From an uncultured archaeon (GTDB lineage Archaea > Asgardarchaeota > Jordiarchaeia > Jordiarchaeales > Jordiarchaeaceae), in contig CAZECW010000060.1 of the NCBI GenBank assembly GCA_964510585.1, positions 1 to 32,000 of the forward strand: a stretch of DNA of 32,000 nucleotides, given 5' to 3'. A program made the translations under genes and the position numbers. This document shows positions 20,775 through 28,820 of this stretch, piece after piece. Within the stretch, counting starts at the first letter, position 1, and the number at the start of each line of letters is the position of its first letter. Under the pieces are notes generated by a model. That model did not search any database, had not been told where the DNA came from, and saw only the letters and a program-made list of their open reading frames with translations.

Positions 20775-21140
20775 CTATATTAGTTCAGCTATCTTTTGAG
20801 CAGACCTACGCATATCCAAAAAAATCAAACCCAACTTAACATCCTTCTTAGCACTTACAGTCAATACGGCATTAGGACCTGCACCCATCACAAAAATGTA
20901 CCCCTCATTTCCACGTATGAAAACCTGCTCCAATTCTCCCTTACCAAGTTCTTGGGCAGCCCGCTCACCAAGGCTTAGCATAGCAGCAGTCATTGCTGCT
21001 ACACGTGTTTCATCAACATTAGCAGGCAGCGCCGAGGCTATGGGAAGCCCCTCAACACTCACTATCGCTGCCGCCTCAATTTCAGGCACCGACGCTTCCA
21101 AGTCCTTTAGTATTTCTTCCAGATTTTCGCTCTTAGACAT
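20775..21140 (-). CDS. Roadblock/LC7 (MglB-like) protein
   Basis: IEAAAIVSVEGLPIASAL, RVAAMTAAMLSLGER, LEQVFIRG..GY, LGLIFLDMRR. ATG 21140. Confidence 0.92.
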   Translation of the reverse strand: MSKSENLEEILKDLEASVPEIEAAAIVSVEGLPIASALPANVDETRVAAMTAAMLSLGERAAQELGKGELEQVFIRGNEGYIFVMGAGPNAVLTVSAKKDVKLGLIFLDMRRSAQKIAELI

Positions 21141-21254: not shown

Positions 21255-21848
21255 TTAAGCGGATTTGGGCATTAACTCTTGTTTATAAAGCCTCTTCAAG
21301 AGAACTTCTCTGGAAAGCGCCTGGAACGCCCGCTTTACACCTAGTCCCTTAATCGCAATAGACTCATACACAGGCAACGAATCAGCTTTAAGAGCCTCAA
21401 CGAGGACATTTTTCTCCAACGCATCCGGCAAATCACGCTTGTTAAGTAAAATCAGTAAAGGTATCTCGCTGCCAAGCTGGTCTCCGAGAAGTCCCTTCAG
21501 TTCCTCTAAGCTCTCTAAATTCGCCTGCAACTGATCCCTTGAAGAGTCCGCTACAAAAATGAGCCCATCAGCACCTTGAAGCACGATTTTCCTCTGATGC
21601 CTATGGCGCTTCTGGCCTGCCACTGTGTACACATCGAAAATAACTTTGCCCGTTGCTGATATTGGGGTATAGTCAAAGTACAGCGTTCTGCCTGTGGGAT
21701 CCTCAACAGAAGTAAAACCACCTTTGTCTAGACCAGTTACCTCATCATAAATCCACCTAAGACAGGTAGTCTTCCCAGATAGGGATGGACCCCAAAAAAC
21801 TATTTTGAAATGTATTCTACCTTGAGCATCTTTTTTCAAAGGCAGCAC
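21255..21848 (-). CDS. mglA: MglA-like small GTPase
   Basis: KIVFWGPSLSGKTT (G1), GRTLYFD (intrinsic Arg plus switch I Thr), YTVAGQ (MglA-type G3), GADGLIFVADS, NKRD (G4). Confidence 0.9.
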   Translation of the reverse strand: MLPLKKDAQGRIHFKIVFWGPSLSGKTTCLRWIYDEVTGLDKGGFTSVEDPTGRTLYFDYTPISATGKVIFDVYTVAGQKRHRHQRKIVLQGADGLIFVADSSRDQLQANLESLEELKGLLGDQLGSEIPLLILLNKRDLPDALEKNVLVEALKADSLPVYESIAIKGLGVKRAFQALSREVLLKRLYKQELMPKSA

Positions 21849-21884: not shown

Positions 21885-22352
21885 CTACACCTTTTCAAGC
21901 TCGCTAAGGGCGGCCTTAAGTTCCTCGTCGCCAGCTCCACCTTCAGACGCAGGCACAACCGGCTTCTCAGCAAGAAACTCGTCGAGAACACTCTTAAGTT
22001 GAGTCGATGCCTTCTTCATAACCAAGCGAATCATACCAATATTAACATCAGAATCAGTTATAACACAGAGAACACCCTTACCGCAACTTGCGGCAAAGAT
22101 TTTCCCATTATCAAACTCTGAAGTTACAATGTTCAACTCACCAATATCCAAGTTCTTACCCTGCTCTTCTGAAGCACAGTAAACTGCACTAGCAATAGCT
22201 CCAATGCCGTCTATATCCACAGGGTAATAACTGAATTTTGATACGTGGGCTATGGTTAGTCCTGTTCTGTCTACCAAAATCACTTTTTTTATCCCGCTTT
22301 CCGCCTTGATGACATCGCTCAAAATTTTATCAAAGGCTTTTATATCCATCAA
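21885..22352 (-). CDS. Roadblock/LC7 (MglB-like) protein with C-terminal linker plus amphipathic helix
   Basis: IKKVILVDRTGLTIA, GAIASAVYCASE, VNIGMIRLVMKK, then tail PVVPASEGGAG-DEELKAALSELEKV. Immediately upstream of the GTPase. Start TTG 22352 or ATG 22349. Confidence 0.88.
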   Translation of the reverse strand: MMDIKAFDKILSDVIKAESGIKKVILVDRTGLTIAHVSKFSYYPVDIDGIGAIASAVYCASEEQGKNLDIGELNIVTSEFDNGKIFAASCGKGVLCVITDSDVNIGMIRLVMKKASTQLKSVLDEFLAEKPVVPASEGGAGDEELKAALSELEKV

Positions 22353-22510: not shown

Positions 22511-22828
22511 TTATTTGCTTTGCGGCAGTTGTTCAGTATTTTTGGATCTGAGTACTATTAGTACGTATTCTTCTTCGGGGGCTATATGTAGTTCGCTTTC
22601 TCCCGCATCTAGTGTTAGGAAGTTCAGTGTACCTTCACCGAGTTCTTGAATGACTTTTGAAGCTTTCCCAACCAGTGATGTTACTTGGGCAGATATTATT
22701 TCGGTCTTTTCGGTTGAGAGGGTTGAACTTATGGGCAGTCCTTCGGTGTTTGTAACGATAACGCCCTTAACGCCTGGATGTTTTTGTAGCTGTTGTAGAG
22801 TTTTCTGGAAGTACTTTGAGGTAATCAT
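22511..22828 (-). CDS. Roadblock protein resembling dynein light chain roadblock (DYNLRB)
   Basis: TLQQLQKHPGVKGVIVTNTEGLPISSTL ... LNFL ... IAPEEEYVLIV. GAGGTG RBS 6 nt before ATG 22828. Confidence 0.88.
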   Translation of the reverse strand: MITSKYFQKTLQQLQKHPGVKGVIVTNTEGLPISSTLSTEKTEIISAQVTSLVGKASKVIQELGEGTLNFLTLDAGESELHIAPEEEYVLIVLRSKNTEQLPQSK

Positions 22829-23166: not shown

Positions 23167-23520
23167 ATGAGTCAATCTAAAGCTGAGAAGATTTTGGCAG
23201 ATCTCATGGACAAGATTCCGGAAATCGAAGGAATATTGCTTCTGGATACGAATGGGAATGTGAGTGTTGGAAAAACAATAACGCAGATGAACCATTCAGA
23301 AATAGCTAAGAATGCTGCGGTGATGATTGCCTCCGCCAGAGAGTTGAACAAGTCAATTAATAAGGGTGGTGCAAACGCAACCTACATTGAGGGTGATGAT
23401 GGCTACGCGGTAACGGCAAATACAAAGAATGCTATATTGCTGGCAATAATTGGTAAGGATGCTGCTCCCTCTCTGGGGTTGATAATTAGAGATCTTAAGA
23501 TAGCCCTATCAAAAATCTAA
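23167..23520 (+). CDS. Divergent roadblock/LC7 protein
   Basis: IPEIEGILLLDTNGNV, YIEGDDGY, SLGLIIRDLKIAL. GGTGA RBS. Confidence 0.82.
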   Translation: MSQSKAEKILADLMDKIPEIEGILLLDTNGNVSVGKTITQMNHSEIAKNAAVMIASARELNKSINKGGANATYIEGDDGYAVTANTKNAILLAIIGKDAAPSLGLIIRDLKIALSKI

Positions 23521-24038: not shown

Positions 24039-27000
24039 TTGGTTTACATCAAAAAGGTTGTTGTCAGGGGCTTCAAGTCTTTTGGGAAGAAGAAGCTGAC
24101 ACTCCGCCTGTCTAAGGGATTCTCAGTAATAGTTGGACCGAATGGGAGTGGAAAAAGCAATTTGCTGGATGCGATTCGTTTTGGACTTGGAGTTCTGAGT
24201 GCAAAGTCACTGAGAGTTAGTACCTTTTCGGATTTGGTTTTTACTCCCAGTAAAGAGGCTAAAACCTCTCCTGCCAAGTATGCCAGTGTAAGCTTATATT
24301 TTGACAATTCGGATAGGAGAATCCCTCTAGATACCAATACGGTAATTATTGACCGGCAGGTTGACCGGACGGGTAAGGGCATATATAAGCTGAATGGAAA
24401 AATCGTTTCCAGGACAGAAATAGTTGACCTTCTGGAAATAGCAGGAATAAGTCCTAGTGGATATAATGTGGTTCCTCAAGGCGAAATATTTGAGCTTATT
24501 CAGATGGGATCACTTGAAAGAAGGAAACTCTTCGAAAACATTGCAGGAATAGCGTCTTATGATGAGAAGAAGGAGAAGGCAGAAAAGGAGTTGGAGGTGG
24601 CGGAACAGAATCTTAGAGAAAACTTTGCACAGGTGAGTGAAGTAAGAAAAGTAGTGGAAAGGTTGGGAAGGGAGAGGGAAGCTGCCCGCAGATACCAGCA
24701 AATCACCGACGAAATAAAGTCTGCCCGTGCAAAACTTGTTTTTCACCAACTCTTAACCTCCGAGGCAGAATTATCAGACATCTTAAAGAGAATAGAGAGT
24801 AACAATGAGCAACTGAATAGTTTAAAAGAGAAAGAAAAGATACTAAGGGAAAAATTAGACGCAGCCACAGCGAGATTAGAGGAAATAGATAAGAGTATCG
24901 TGGAGGATGTGGGAACTAGGATTGGAGAGCTGCAATTCGAGCTTAGTGAGAAGAAGGCGATGTATTCTGAGAAAGAATTGGTTTTAAATTACAAGCAGGA
25001 GGAGTTTAGGAAGAGTTTGGATAGGCTAAACAGCCTAAAACAAGAAATAGAAGATATTGAGACCAAAATTAAAGAAGAAACGGTAAATATTGGGGAGCTA
25101 GAAAATCAAGAGGCAGAATTAGAGAAGCAGATTAAAACGAAAAAAGACATTCTTGAAGAGATAAATGAGCGGATAACAACTAGTGACTCTAAGTTTTCAA
25201 AATTGGGAACCAGAATTAAAGAAATTCATGATGAAATGGAAAAATACAGGTCTAAGATTGTTTCTCTTAAAACTGCTCAAGAGGCCTTCAAGAAGGACAT
25301 CGAGTATATTTCGGCATCTATTAACTCGAGGAGAGCGGTAATAGAAGAAATTAAAAAAGCACTACAAAAGGCCGAGATGGAAAGAAGCCAATTTGAGGAG
25401 ATAATTGATAAATCTAGAAAAGATTTGGAAGCGTTTAATAATCAGGCGGAAGAACTGCAAAAGGAACAGGATGTTATTCGCCGACAGATGGAGGAGACCG
25501 AGAAGTTAATTTTAAATGTTAGAGACGAAGTGGTGACAATTAAGGCCATAAATGAGGAGAGGAAAAGACTTCTCAGGGGACAGTCTGCTGTAAGAGAAAT
25601 TCTGAAACTTCGAGACCAGAAAAAAATTGAGGGAATTTATGGAACAATTTCTGAACTTGGAAAAACAGATCTGAAATATGCTCTGGCACTTGAGGTTTCC
25701 GCAGGTAATCGCGCCAATTACATAGTTGTTGATAATGATGAGGTAGCCGCCAAATGTATTAATTTTCTCAAAAATGGCAGAATAGGAAGAGCCTCCTTTT
25801 TACCCCTAAACAAAATTCAGAGAACCGATTTCAAAATCACCAAGGGGGACGGGGTAATAGGCTCAGCGATTGACCTTATGGTTTTTGATGAGAAGTTCAG
25901 AGCCGCATTCGAATATGTTTTCGGAAATGTGGTAATAGTCAAGGACTTAAACACCGCCAGAAAATTGGACCTTCCAGAGATAAGGAAGGTTACCATCGAG
26001 GGCGACATCGTCGAGCCCAGAGGACTGATGAGCGGCGGTTACTATACTGGAAGAGCTAGCCTAACCTTTACGGAAACAGAAAAACTACCCCAATTGGAAG
26101 AACAGCTAAGCGGACTTAACGCGATTCGGCTGGAACTTCGAGAGAAACTCGACAAAGTATCGAAAGCATACTTTGAGATGCGAAACAAGATAGAGGAAGA
26201 AGAACACCATCTTGGAAAATATTCCGCCAACTTTGAGCACCTACTAGAACAAATAAAAGAAAAAAACGTGGAAGTAGCTAAAATCGAATCGGAGATAAAG
26301 AAACAACAAAAACTAATTGAAGAAAGACAGAAACAGTACAACACAGTATCCCAAGAAATAGAGAAAATAGAGGAAAAAATTAAAACCCTATCTGAGGAGA
26401 ACCAGGAGCTTAACAGGATAATCGAAGAGTCAGGTGTTTCTGACCTATATGCTCAGTCAAGAAGCATGGAGACTGAGATTGCCAGCCTGAAAGAAAAATT
26501 AAGCACTGTTAGAGTAAAAATTGCCCAGTCGAAAACCAAGATGAATGAATACCTAACGCCAAGAAGGGAAGAAATAAAGAATTTGGTTAAAGAGTTGGAG
26601 AAAGAAGTCGCGAGAATCTCCAAGGAGAGAGATGAAATCCAAAGCGTAATTCAGCCCTTATACCAAGAAGTATCAAAACTGGAAGAGGAGAAAAGGACGC
26701 TTGAGGAAAATGTTTCAAAACTGAGAAAAGAAGAGGCGAAACTCAAACAGGAGACATCAGTTTTAAGAAATGAGTTGGAGGTAACTATTAGAAAGGCTAA
26801 CTCCATAGAACTCGAATTGGGCAGGTTAATGGTGGAAAAAGAGCATTTAGAAAAGAGTATTCAAGAGCTCAGAACTGAAGCCAAAGAATTCATGGACTTC
26901 AAACCCAAAGAAATCTCAAAAGTCAACGTTGCCGAGCTAAGGGAACTAATAAGAAGAAAGGAAGCGGAGAAAAAGAGCCTGGAGCCAGTCAACATGCTAG

Positions 27001-27593
27001 CCATCCAACTCTATGAGCAGGAAAGAGCCAGATATGAAGAAATACTGAGAAAAAGAGAAGAGCTGATAAAAGAGAGAGAAAGCATCATGGAATTTATAAG
27101 AGAAGTGGAGAGGGATAAGAGAAGAAGTTTCCTCGCGACATTTTACAGCATTGAGCGTAACTTCAAAAAAATATTTTCACGGCTTTCTCCAGGCGGAGAA
27201 GGAAGATTCATACTCGAAAACCAAGCAGATCCATTCTTGGGAGGAGTTGATATCGAAGCCCGTCCCTCGGGAAAAGATGTGAAAAGAATTGAAGCTATGT
27301 CAGGAGGCGAAAAATCCCTAACAGCAATTGCGCTAATATTCGCCATACAGCAGTATCAGCCAGCACCCTTTTACTTAATGGATGAAATAGACGCCTTTCT
27401 TGACGATGATAATGCAAACAGAGTAGCGGAATTACTTAAGGAGTACTCAAAAGAGTCCCAGTTAATACTAGTATCCCTTCGCGATATTACCATAGCTAAA
27501 GCAGACAGGGTATTTGGTGTAATGTGTCGTGAAGGAGTTTCAGACGTCGTTTCTCTAAGCATGGAAGAGGAGGAAAGGGAAGAAGATGACTGA
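24039..27593 (+). CDS. smc: Chromosome segregation protein SMC
   Basis: GFKSF, Walker A GPNGSGKSN, VVPQG, two long coiled coils around a hinge (GIYGTISELG...GRASFLPL), signature MSGGEKS, Walker B LMDEIDAFLD. Confidence 0.97.
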   Translation: MVYIKKVVVRGFKSFGKKKLTLRLSKGFSVIVGPNGSGKSNLLDAIRFGLGVLSAKSLRVSTFSDLVFTPSKEAKTSPAKYASVSLYFDNSDRRIPLDTNTVIIDRQVDRTGKGIYKLNGKIVSRTEIVDLLEIAGISPSGYNVVPQGEIFELIQMGSLERRKLFENIAGIASYDEKKEKAEKELEVAEQNLRENFAQVSEVRKVVERLGREREAARRYQQITDEIKSARAKLVFHQLLTSEAELSDILKRIESNNEQLNSLKEKEKILREKLDAATARLEEIDKSIVEDVGTRIGELQFELSEKKAMYSEKELVLNYKQEEFRKSLDRLNSLKQEIEDIETKIKEETVNIGELENQEAELEKQIKTKKDILEEINERITTSDSKFSKLGTRIKEIHDEMEKYRSKIVSLKTAQEAFKKDIEYISASINSRRAVIEEIKKALQKAEMERSQFEEIIDKSRKDLEAFNNQAEELQKEQDVIRRQMEETEKLILNVRDEVVTIKAINEERKRLLRGQSAVREILKLRDQKKIEGIYGTISELGKTDLKYALALEVSAGNRANYIVVDNDEVAAKCINFLKNGRIGRASFLPLNKIQRTDFKITKGDGVIGSAIDLMVFDEKFRAAFEYVFGNVVIVKDLNTARKLDLPEIRKVTIEGDIVEPRGLMSGGYYTGRASLTFTETEKLPQLEEQLSGLNAIRLELREKLDKVSKAYFEMRNKIEEEEHHLGKYSANFEHLLEQIKEKNVEVAKIESEIKKQQKLIEERQKQYNTVSQEIEKIEEKIKTLSEENQELNRIIEESGVSDLYAQSRSMETEIASLKEKLSTVRVKIAQSKTKMNEYLTPRREEIKNLVKELEKEVARISKERDEIQSVIQPLYQEVSKLEEEKRTLEENVSKLRKEEAKLKQETSVLRNELEVTIRKANSIELELGRLMVEKEHLEKSIQELRTEAKEFMDFKPKEISKVNVAELRELIRRKEAEKKSLEPVNMLAIQLYEQERARYEEILRKREELIKERESIMEFIREVERDKRRSFLATFYSIERNFKKIFSRLSPGGEGRFILENQADPFLGGVDIEARPSGKDVKRIEAMSGGEKSLTAIALIFAIQQYQPAPFYLMDEIDAFLDDDNANRVAELLKEYSKESQLILVSLRDITIAKADRVFGVMCREGVSDVVSLSMEEEEREEDD

Positions 27594-28266
27594 ACAAACG
27601 CAAGAGGAGCCCTTCTGGATACATCCACCGTGGTCACTTCTAGTAGACACCACCCAAACAGCTGCGGATCCCTGGGAGATTAACGTTAGCAGAATACTAT
27701 TGAGCTTTTTAGAAAAAATGCGTGAAAAAGAAATGGTTAACTATAAAGTTTCTGGAAAGGCCCTACTGACAGCATCAATTATTCACAGGATAAAATCTGA
27801 ACTGCTTTTGAAACTGGGACAGGAAAAGGAGGAGAAGGAGGAAAAAGAGGAGGATTTAGATCTCAATTTACCACCAATCCCTATGCCTTATAGGTTGATA
27901 AATAGGAAAGTTAGCCTCGAGGAACTATTAGTAGCTTTGGAGAGAGTTCTACTTAGCGAAGAAACAAAAAAGGTTATTCAGAAACCTTTAAAGGAAGAAA
28001 TTACACCAGAACCATTCGTTTTTGAGCCTTCAAAGTTCAACATTGAAGAATACATAGAACAAATTTATGGAAAAATTATTTGCGGCGAGAAGGAGATAAC
28101 CAAATTTTCAGAGCTGGTTAACAAAAGAAACCCCATTGAAGTCGTTAGAAATCTTTTAGGTATTCTCATACTATATCTCAGACGGAAAATACACATCTGG
28201 CAAGAAAGACAGTTCGGAGAGATCTACATAATGGATGTGGAAAAATGGCAAAGGATGCTAAAATGA
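27586..28266 (+). CDS. scpA: Kleisin ScpA
   Basis: DPWEINVSRILLSFLEKM, SGKALLTASII, C-terminal winged-helix region with IWQERQFGEIYI. Overlaps the smc stop by 8 nt. Confidence 0.9.
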   Translation: MTEQTQEEPFWIHPPWSLLVDTTQTAADPWEINVSRILLSFLEKMREKEMVNYKVSGKALLTASIIHRIKSELLLKLGQEKEEKEEKEEDLDLNLPPIPMPYRLINRKVSLEELLVALERVLLSEETKKVIQKPLKEEITPEPFVFEPSKFNIEEYIEQIYGKIICGEKEITKFSELVNKRNPIEVVRNLLGILILYLRRKIHIWQERQFGEIYIMDVEKWQRMLK

Positions 28267-28820
28267 TTATTGAGGCTGCATTATACGCTGCTGGTAGACC
28301 TCTTTCAATTGAGCAAATTGCAGAGATTGCAAAAATTGATGATTTGGAATACGTGGACGAGCTGGTGGGACAGCTCATACGGGAATATGAGGAGAGAAAC
28401 AGCGCATTGGAAATAGTTGCACTGCCTGGCAGTAAGTACGTATTGCAGCTCAAGCCCAGCTACTCTAACAAAATAAGTAATGTGGCTTCGCGTGGATTAT
28501 TATCCTTAGGCGAACTAAAAACTCTTGCCTATATCGCTCTGAAGCAACCAATAGAGCAATCTAAAGTGGCAAAAGCTCGAGGCTCACACAGCTATAAACA
28601 CATTAAAAAGCTGGAAGAGTTAGGATTTTTAAAATTTGAACGAGCTGGCAGAACCAAAATTTTCCAAACCACAGAAATGTTTGCAGACTATTTCGGATTC
28701 GACCACGAACCTAGGAGACTGAAACAGCAATTAAGATGGAGAATAAGGAAGGAGGGCATCCAGACCCGATTAGACGCCCAACCAGAAGCCACCCAAGAAC
28801 CTGAAGAATTTGAATCATAA
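28245..28820 (+). CDS. scpB: ScpB (kite, tandem winged helix)
   Basis: IIEAALYAAGRPLS, LKTLAYIALKQPI, RG, TTEMFADYFG. Start ATG 28245, or ATG 28263 which forms an ATGA overlap with the scpA stop. Confidence 0.93.
   Translation: MAKDAKMIIEAALYAAGRPLSIEQIAEIAKIDDLEYVDELVGQLIREYEERNSALEIVALPGSKYVLQLKPSYSNKISNVASRGLLSLGELKTLAYIALKQPIEQSKVAKARGSHSYKHIKKLEELGFLKFERAGRTKIFQTTEMFADYFGFDHEPRRLKQQLRWRIRKEGIQTRLDAQPEATQEPEEFES

Follow-up and report, generated by a model that had tools for sequence, protein, structure and literature searches.

The roadblock gene and its neighbours

The window (the whole stretch of 32,000 nucleotides that was analysed) contains a short gene for a roadblock protein, RBLC7, which lies in a cluster with three further roadblock genes and a gene for a small GTPase. 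The order is RB117 (divergent), RBLC7, RB155, MglA and RB126, and smc-scpA-scpB lies on the other side. The features of the locus are listed below.

20775..21140, minus strand: RB126, a generic full roadblock, close by similarity to Thor-RB (7F8M) and to bacterial roadblocks
21255..21848, minus strand: MglA-type small GTPase (T. thermophilus MglA, E 7e-37; Arf-like matches, 1e-10 or weaker)
21885..22349, minus strand: RB155, an MglB-like full roadblock (154 aa) extended by a flexible linker and an additional helix at the C-terminus (from similarity and a model)
21888..21932, minus strand: predicted acidic amphipathic C-terminal helix of RB155 (residues 140–154), of LxxALxELE type; putative ligand of RBLC7
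22511..22828, minus strand: RBLC7, open reading frame of 105 aa with its ATG at 22828 and its stop ending at 22511; a DYNLRB-type short roadblock with one N-terminal helix, five strands and a central helix, without a C-terminal helix
22835..22840, minus strand: SD-like GAGGTG, 6 nt 5' of the RBLC7 ATG (from the sequence only)
23167..23520, plus strand: RB117, the fourth roadblock, divergently transcribed and related by similarity to MK-D1 Roadblock2 (9JQ8)
24039..28820, plus strand: smc-scpA-scpB, often but not always next to the cluster, given for context only

A scan for promoters and terminators gave no signals above chance.

RBLC7 matched the Pfam family Robl_LC7 (E 4e-18), and its closest relatives (93–96% identity) came from Jordarchaeia/Freyarchaeia genomes, which identifies the window as Asgard archaeal. 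The AF2 model (pLDDT 89) predicted a helix at residues 4–15, five strands, a helix at residues 39–63 and coil beyond residue 95. That is, the modelled fold ends after strand 5 without a C-terminal helix, and this Jordiarchaeia copy has a disordered tail of 11 residues. The best structural match to the model was the Drosophila Robl–intermediate-chain complex 3L9K (Z 15.2, rmsd 1.5 Å, 92 aligned residues). Other roadblocks were only 1–2 Z behind; thus, the fold alone was not discriminating. A sequence search of the PDB returned 7F8F at the top (E 4e-27), then human DYNLRB1 (1Z09; E 3e-14, 56 bits) and then a run of eukaryotic roadblock light chains. LAMTOR5 scored 15 bits in the same search, and other Asgard roadblocks were also far weaker. 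In Pfam, the LAMTOR5 score of RBLC7 was 25.7 bits, below the family cut-off of 27. RBLC7 gave no match to MglB and has no fourth helix, and thus is not of the MglB type.

Likeness to eukaryotic DYNLRB

The sequence-only reading had described RBLC7 as strikingly close to the eukaryotic dynein light chain roadblock, with about a third of its positions identical to DYNLRB1. Local alignment with the DYNLRB1-type core bore out the estimate: 32 of 89 positions were identical (36%), with a score of 164 against a shuffle maximum of 51, and the three neighbouring roadblocks scored 36–61 against the same core. A DYNLRB profile made from 33 eukaryote-type sequences was run against the genome and gave 80.7 bits for RBLC7 and 16.8 bits for the runner-up. 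The Asgard RBLC7 profile (36 sequences) gave 88 bits for DYNLRB1, 45 for Thor-RB, 22 for LAMTOR2 and 18 for LAMTOR5, and RBLC7 and DYNLRB were reciprocal best profile matches. The best 150 of the 1.84 billion representatives searched were mainly proteins with the DYNLRB motif, together with Asgard-type orthologues; a tree placed 15 ambiguous sequences from these 150 with the Asgard group, with the eukaryotic group or at the base of these.

The closeness was therefore real (81 bits versus 17), but it was family-wide, and other Asgard orthologues were closer to eukaryotes than the copy studied here. Mean identity of the Jordiarchaeia copy to 33 eukaryotic sequences was 30%, below the family average and not among the closest, with other Asgard orthologues reaching 37%. 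Identity to DYNLRB was 22–37% across the RBLC7 family and averaged 12–19% for other roadblocks. We concluded that likeness to DYNLRB is a property of the whole RBLC7 family, not of the Jordiarchaeia copy. The motifs NTEGxPI and APxxxYxLIV, said to be present here and missing from the three neighbours, were confirmed as such, although one neighbour has EGxPI. Exact NTEGxPI occurred in 1 of 36 Asgard orthologues, so its match to DYNLRB is incidental.

Individual residues separate the two groups. DYNLRB has an invariant basic hairpin (R72 in 100% and K/R74 in 94% of sequences), in place of which RBLC7 has T72 and D74, so that the two surfaces are not identical. In the central helix, E43, A47 and K/R55 were invariant across 36 Asgard copies, and E43 was not conserved in eukaryotes. 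Lysine or arginine was found at position 21 in 92% and at position 94 in 97% of Asgard copies, and mostly other residues in eukaryotes. K/R21 and K/R94 would suit an acidic ligand such as the RB155 tail if they flank the groove, their presumed position.

Phylogeny and orthology

A phylogeny had been proposed as a check on this likeness. In three trees of 98 columns, which covered sampled Asgard and bacterial roadblocks without LAMTORs, MglB or non-Asgard archaeal roadblocks, Asgard RBLC7 and eukaryotic DYNLRB formed one clade on a long stem (support 83/98, 95/97 and 98/99). Eukaryotic DYNLRB formed a clade of its own (100/99) with no Asgard sequence inside, and RBLC7 fell outside it. AU tests rejected a grouping of DYNLRB with RB126, and did not reject groupings with RB155 (p 0.12) or RB117 (p 0.06); the latter two survived because only 98 columns were available. 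The placement of eukaryotes as sister to or nested within the Asgard sequences was not distinguished (p 0.38), nor was a Heimdall-type sister (p 0.33). In one tree, eukaryotes joined the Hodarchaeales copies (92/83), but wider sampling of Hodarchaeales dissolved this grouping, and we discarded it as a long-branch effect. One Hodarchaeales locus (L081:5748-6431, assigned from cluster names) had two strongly diverged tandem RBLC7 copies, unlinked from mglA, that may form a heterodimer.

We concluded that this Asgard gene is very probably orthologous to eukaryotic DYNLRB and to Odin-RBLC7, whose crystal structure is known. Convergence of short roadblocks, transfer from a eukaryote, or contamination could in principle create such likeness, and the short domain, the 98-column trees and the two non-significant AU tests speak for caution. 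The prospect is a very slim one, and we regard it as largely refuted: the gene is found in 224 of 251 Asgard genomes with conserved archaeal gene order, the separate eukaryotic clade (100/99) holds zero Asgard sequences, and other roadblocks had a mean identity to DYNLRB of 12–19% versus 22–37% in the RBLC7 family.

Odin-RBLC7 and distribution of the family

7F8F is Odin-RBLC7, OLS18093.1 (Tran et al. 2024, PMC10933270). It was solved by molecular replacement from a DYNLRB model as a homodimer without the C-terminal helix, was found most similar to MglB and DLRB1, and was proposed to offer a helix-binding site for larger complexes (PMC10933270). In the main text of that paper, RBLC7 has neither a phylogeny nor a synteny analysis nor a named partner. 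The protein encoded at L038:5883-6164, in a single-contig genome of 1.418 Mb, matched the 7F8F sequence, was 55% identical to the Jordiarchaeia RBLC7 and lay in the same gene order; in both L038 and the window, the gene is between RB117 and RB155. By analogy, the RBLC7 studied here should be a homodimer like Odin-RBLC7 and DYNLRB.

The RBLC7 family was present in 224 of 251 Asgard genomes (84 of 89 of high quality), usually as a single copy, and some JGI records name its members 'dynein light chain roadblock-type'. Family f19 has a 105-aa short roadblock of very divergent sequence (L138:2584-2901), which may be a rapidly evolving RBLC7; the RB155-like genes of f19 were divergent too. A DYNLRB-like roadblock in Asgard archaea is already published, and the gene itself is not a discovery. 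A literature search outside subscription papers found nothing in main texts on Asgard together with DYNLRB, or on 7F8F.

Conservation of the cluster

We compared gene order at 45 loci chosen across the Asgard phylum. At least one of the four partner genes lay beside RBLC7 in 43 of these loci, and all four did so in 16; RB155, MglA and RB126 were near RBLC7 in 20, and SMC in 13. The position beside an MglA module, as first noted from the window, is thus conserved across Asgard. Local arrangements varied. In Loki-type genomes only RB117 still adjoined RBLC7, and in Heimdallarchaeum-type and related families RBLC7 directly adjoined mglA with no RB155 between. The cluster was dispersed in Loki-type genomes, Hodarchaeales and others, with the RBLC7 gene persisting. 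Genome-wide, RB155 turned up in all families with RBLC7, and all of those examined for RB126 had it as well. Five RBLC7-bearing families, complete genomes included, yielded no RB117, and RB117 is thereby ruled out as a universal partner of RBLC7.

In four families (Odin- and Loki-type), the best MglA grouped with a second paralogue and not with the cluster MglA (tree support 96/89), and these Odin- and Loki-type lineages retained RBLC7, RB155 and RB126 after losing the cluster MglA. Retention of RBLC7 with two roadblocks after the loss of MglA points to a roadblock partner, not to the GTPase. The co-occurrence of RBLC7 with RB155 and RB126 rests on few independent losses, and related genomes are not independent. 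Families f17, f19 and f22 were considered as keepers of MglA that had lost RBLC7, and were set aside: their MglAs grouped with second paralogues, f19 has the divergent short roadblock described above, and the reading is also weakened by genomes that are mostly incomplete.

Several further observations were made at these loci. The roadblock/MglA cluster lay next to smc-scpA-scpB in distant Asgard families (13 of 45 loci). Four Loki-type loci (L048:6118-7017, L049:4516-5415, L070:7498-8439 and L080:4514-5617) had a weakly ScpA-like gene of 299–367 aa near RBLC7, and no smc. A close relative had ~1.5 kb of additional DNA between RBLC7 and RB155, perhaps a mobile element (L004:508-1983), and at L053:5286-5956 RB155 appeared as two open reading frames, from a frameshift or an assembly error. 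A Neisseria gonorrhoeae roadblock (L085:1501-1845; NZ_CP119142.1) was 49% identical to RB126; the record, of 2.17 Mb, is labelled a plasmid and resembles a chromosome. PDB entries 9JQ8 and 9JUE (MK-D1 'Roadblock2' and 'Roadblock3') matched RB117 and the RB126 family, and no associated paper was found by literature search.

Proposed function of RBLC7

The DYNLRB dimer clamps two dynein intermediate chains by means of their amphipathic helices (PMC10886578), and roadblocks of the RBLC7 type take a partner helix at the site of the missing fourth helix (PMC10933270). Judging from 7F8F and the DYNLRB–intermediate-chain structures, absence of the C-terminal helix would leave a groove in the RBLC7 homodimer for the amphipathic helix of a partner. 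We therefore favour RBLC7 as a homodimeric helix-clamp scaffold in the roadblock/MglA module, a reading by analogy that we put at a probability of about one in two. It would be a scaffold subunit of this conserved module and would not itself act as a GAP.

As to what is clamped, the most likely ligand, as a tentative candidate pairing suggested by sequence, is the acidic C-terminal helix of RB155. The RB155 model comprised a complete roadblock domain followed by a variable low-confidence linker and a predicted C-terminal helix (residues 140–153 in the model). Behind the variable linker, 28 of 29 RB155 orthologues kept the LxxALxELE-type motif of this tail, among them Heimdall-type copies that are unlinked and copies from lineages that lack the cluster MglA; the motif occurred only once in this proteome. 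On this proposal, two RB155 tails would be gripped by one RBLC7 dimer, much in the way that DYNLRB holds two intermediate chains. As a counterpoint, RB126 tracks RBLC7 equally well. In Myxococcus, the corresponding helix of MglB acts on MglA (PMC13408092); the RB155 tail might thus act on a GTPase instead, and lineages without the cluster MglA still carry paralogous MglAs. Loki-type RB155 tails (L093, L095, L096) had a different Asp/Leu-rich sequence instead of the conserved helix motif. The RB155 tail was shortened in L097, which comes from a genome where RBLC7 was not found. Prediction of a complex in which two RB155 tails (residues 124–154) join an RBLC7 dimer gave a score of 0.02, which we counted neither way, and a degenerate DNA pattern for the tail, too strict to inform, gave zero matches.

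It is possible, though on balance doubtful, that DYNLRB began as a clamp for the C-terminal helices of an MglB-like roadblock, within a roadblock/MglA signalling complex common to all Asgard archaea, and that the groove was later taken by the dynein intermediate chain. Eukaryotes would then have moved an RBLC7-type clamp onto dynein. No dynein chain had been expected in archaea, and searches for Dynein_IC2, Dynein_heavy, LC8 and Tctex, run without a positive control, gave no match in the 96% complete genome.

The same data were weighed against other functions. RBLC7 could be a platform for the GTPase, its dimer binding MglA or another small GTPase by the central-helix face, as MglB does, and acting as a GAP/GEF cofactor in the manner of the second Myxococcus roadblocks. 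This reading draws on the invariant E43, A47 and K/R55, with E43 not conserved in eukaryotes, on the families in which RBLC7 directly adjoins mglA, and on a reported binding of DYNLRB1 to a Rab GTPase (cited in PMC3747258). We consider it unlikely, as RBLC7 is retained in the Odin- and Loki-type genomes whose best MglA belongs to the paralogous clade (96/89), it is RB155 that resembles MglB within the cluster, and the conserved helix residues could be a mere dimer interface. The pre-dynein role in GTPase signalling that had been suggested from the window thus gains from the conserved location in an MglA module and loses from the lineages that keep the gene after losing the cluster MglA.

RBLC7 could also be a subunit of a Ragulator-like hetero-oligomer, paired with another roadblock like LAMTOR4/5 beside a LAMTOR2/3-like pair of RB155 and RB126. 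Four distinct roadblocks do surround one GTPase, RB126 and RB155 co-occur with RBLC7, RBLC7 and RB155 gave weak Pfam matches to LAMTOR5 (E 1e-5) and MAPKK1_Int (E 1e-7), and the diverged tandem copies of Hodarchaeales could form a heterodimer. Against this, Odin-RBLC7 crystallised as a homodimer (PMC10933270), the DYNLRB score was far above those of LAMTOR5 and LAMTOR2, and the neighbouring GTPase is of the MglA and not the Rag type, which makes the arrangement improbable. Yet more improbable, in our judgement, is a role as a general dimerising hub with its main partner (e.g. cytoskeletal or SMC-related) encoded at another place, the cluster being no more than inherited gene order. RBLC7 does persist where the cluster is broken (Loki-type genomes, Hodarchaeales, others), SMC or ScpA-like genes lay near it in about a quarter of loci, and DYNLRB has many partners (PMC3747258); but at least one module gene was adjacent in 43 of 45 loci, the retained gene differing between lineages, and the searches run without a positive control turned up no dynein chain in the genome.

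We place RBLC7 in the Asgard RBLC7 group, as a probable helix clamp in the manner of DYNLRB, and do not class it as a dynein light chain, an MglB or a LAMTOR4/5. It is kept apart from the dynein light chains because it branches outside the eukaryotic clade, has no basic hairpin and comes from a genome in which no dynein was found. Three elements were not found in the non-subscription literature searched: tree support for DYNLRB orthology, near-universal presence in a conserved GTPase cluster, and a concrete candidate ligand. The value of the finding lies in the orthology support and in a cheap binding test. If the RB155 tail is the ligand, the origin of a dynein subunit could be followed back to a functioning complex in archaea, and the pre-dynein role of dynein's parts would be testable with two small soluble proteins. 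If the ancestral clamp is also correct, this dynein subunit would have a named and testable pre-dynein partner.

Comparison with known systems

The nearest known protein is Odin-RBLC7, an orthologue with 55% identity, an equally truncated fold (Z 13.7, rmsd 1.1 Å) and a common neighbourhood. The Odin cluster has no MglA gene, whereas the Jordiarchaeia cluster retains MglA and its RBLC7 copy has the disordered tail. Eukaryotic DYNLRB1/2 (1Z09, 3L9K) share with RBLC7 its architecture, 36% identity, reciprocal best profiles and one clade; RBLC7 differs in lying outside the eukaryotic clade, in lacking the basic beta-hairpin, and in its Asgard-specific E43 and K/R21/94.

The MglA/MglB polarity switch (Thermus 3T12; Myxococcus 6IZW/6H5B) resembles the neighbours of RBLC7, namely an MglA-type GTPase and an MglB-like RB155 with a linker and then a C-terminal helix. 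In contrast, RBLC7 itself had 11–17% structural identity and no fourth helix, and the Asgard cluster has four different roadblocks. LAMTOR4/5 of Ragulator are likewise truncated roadblocks and hold a helix of their partner LAMTOR1, within a GTPase scaffold built from several roadblocks; however, their sequence match was much weaker (18 versus 88 bits), and they form a heterodimer that serves Rag GTPases.
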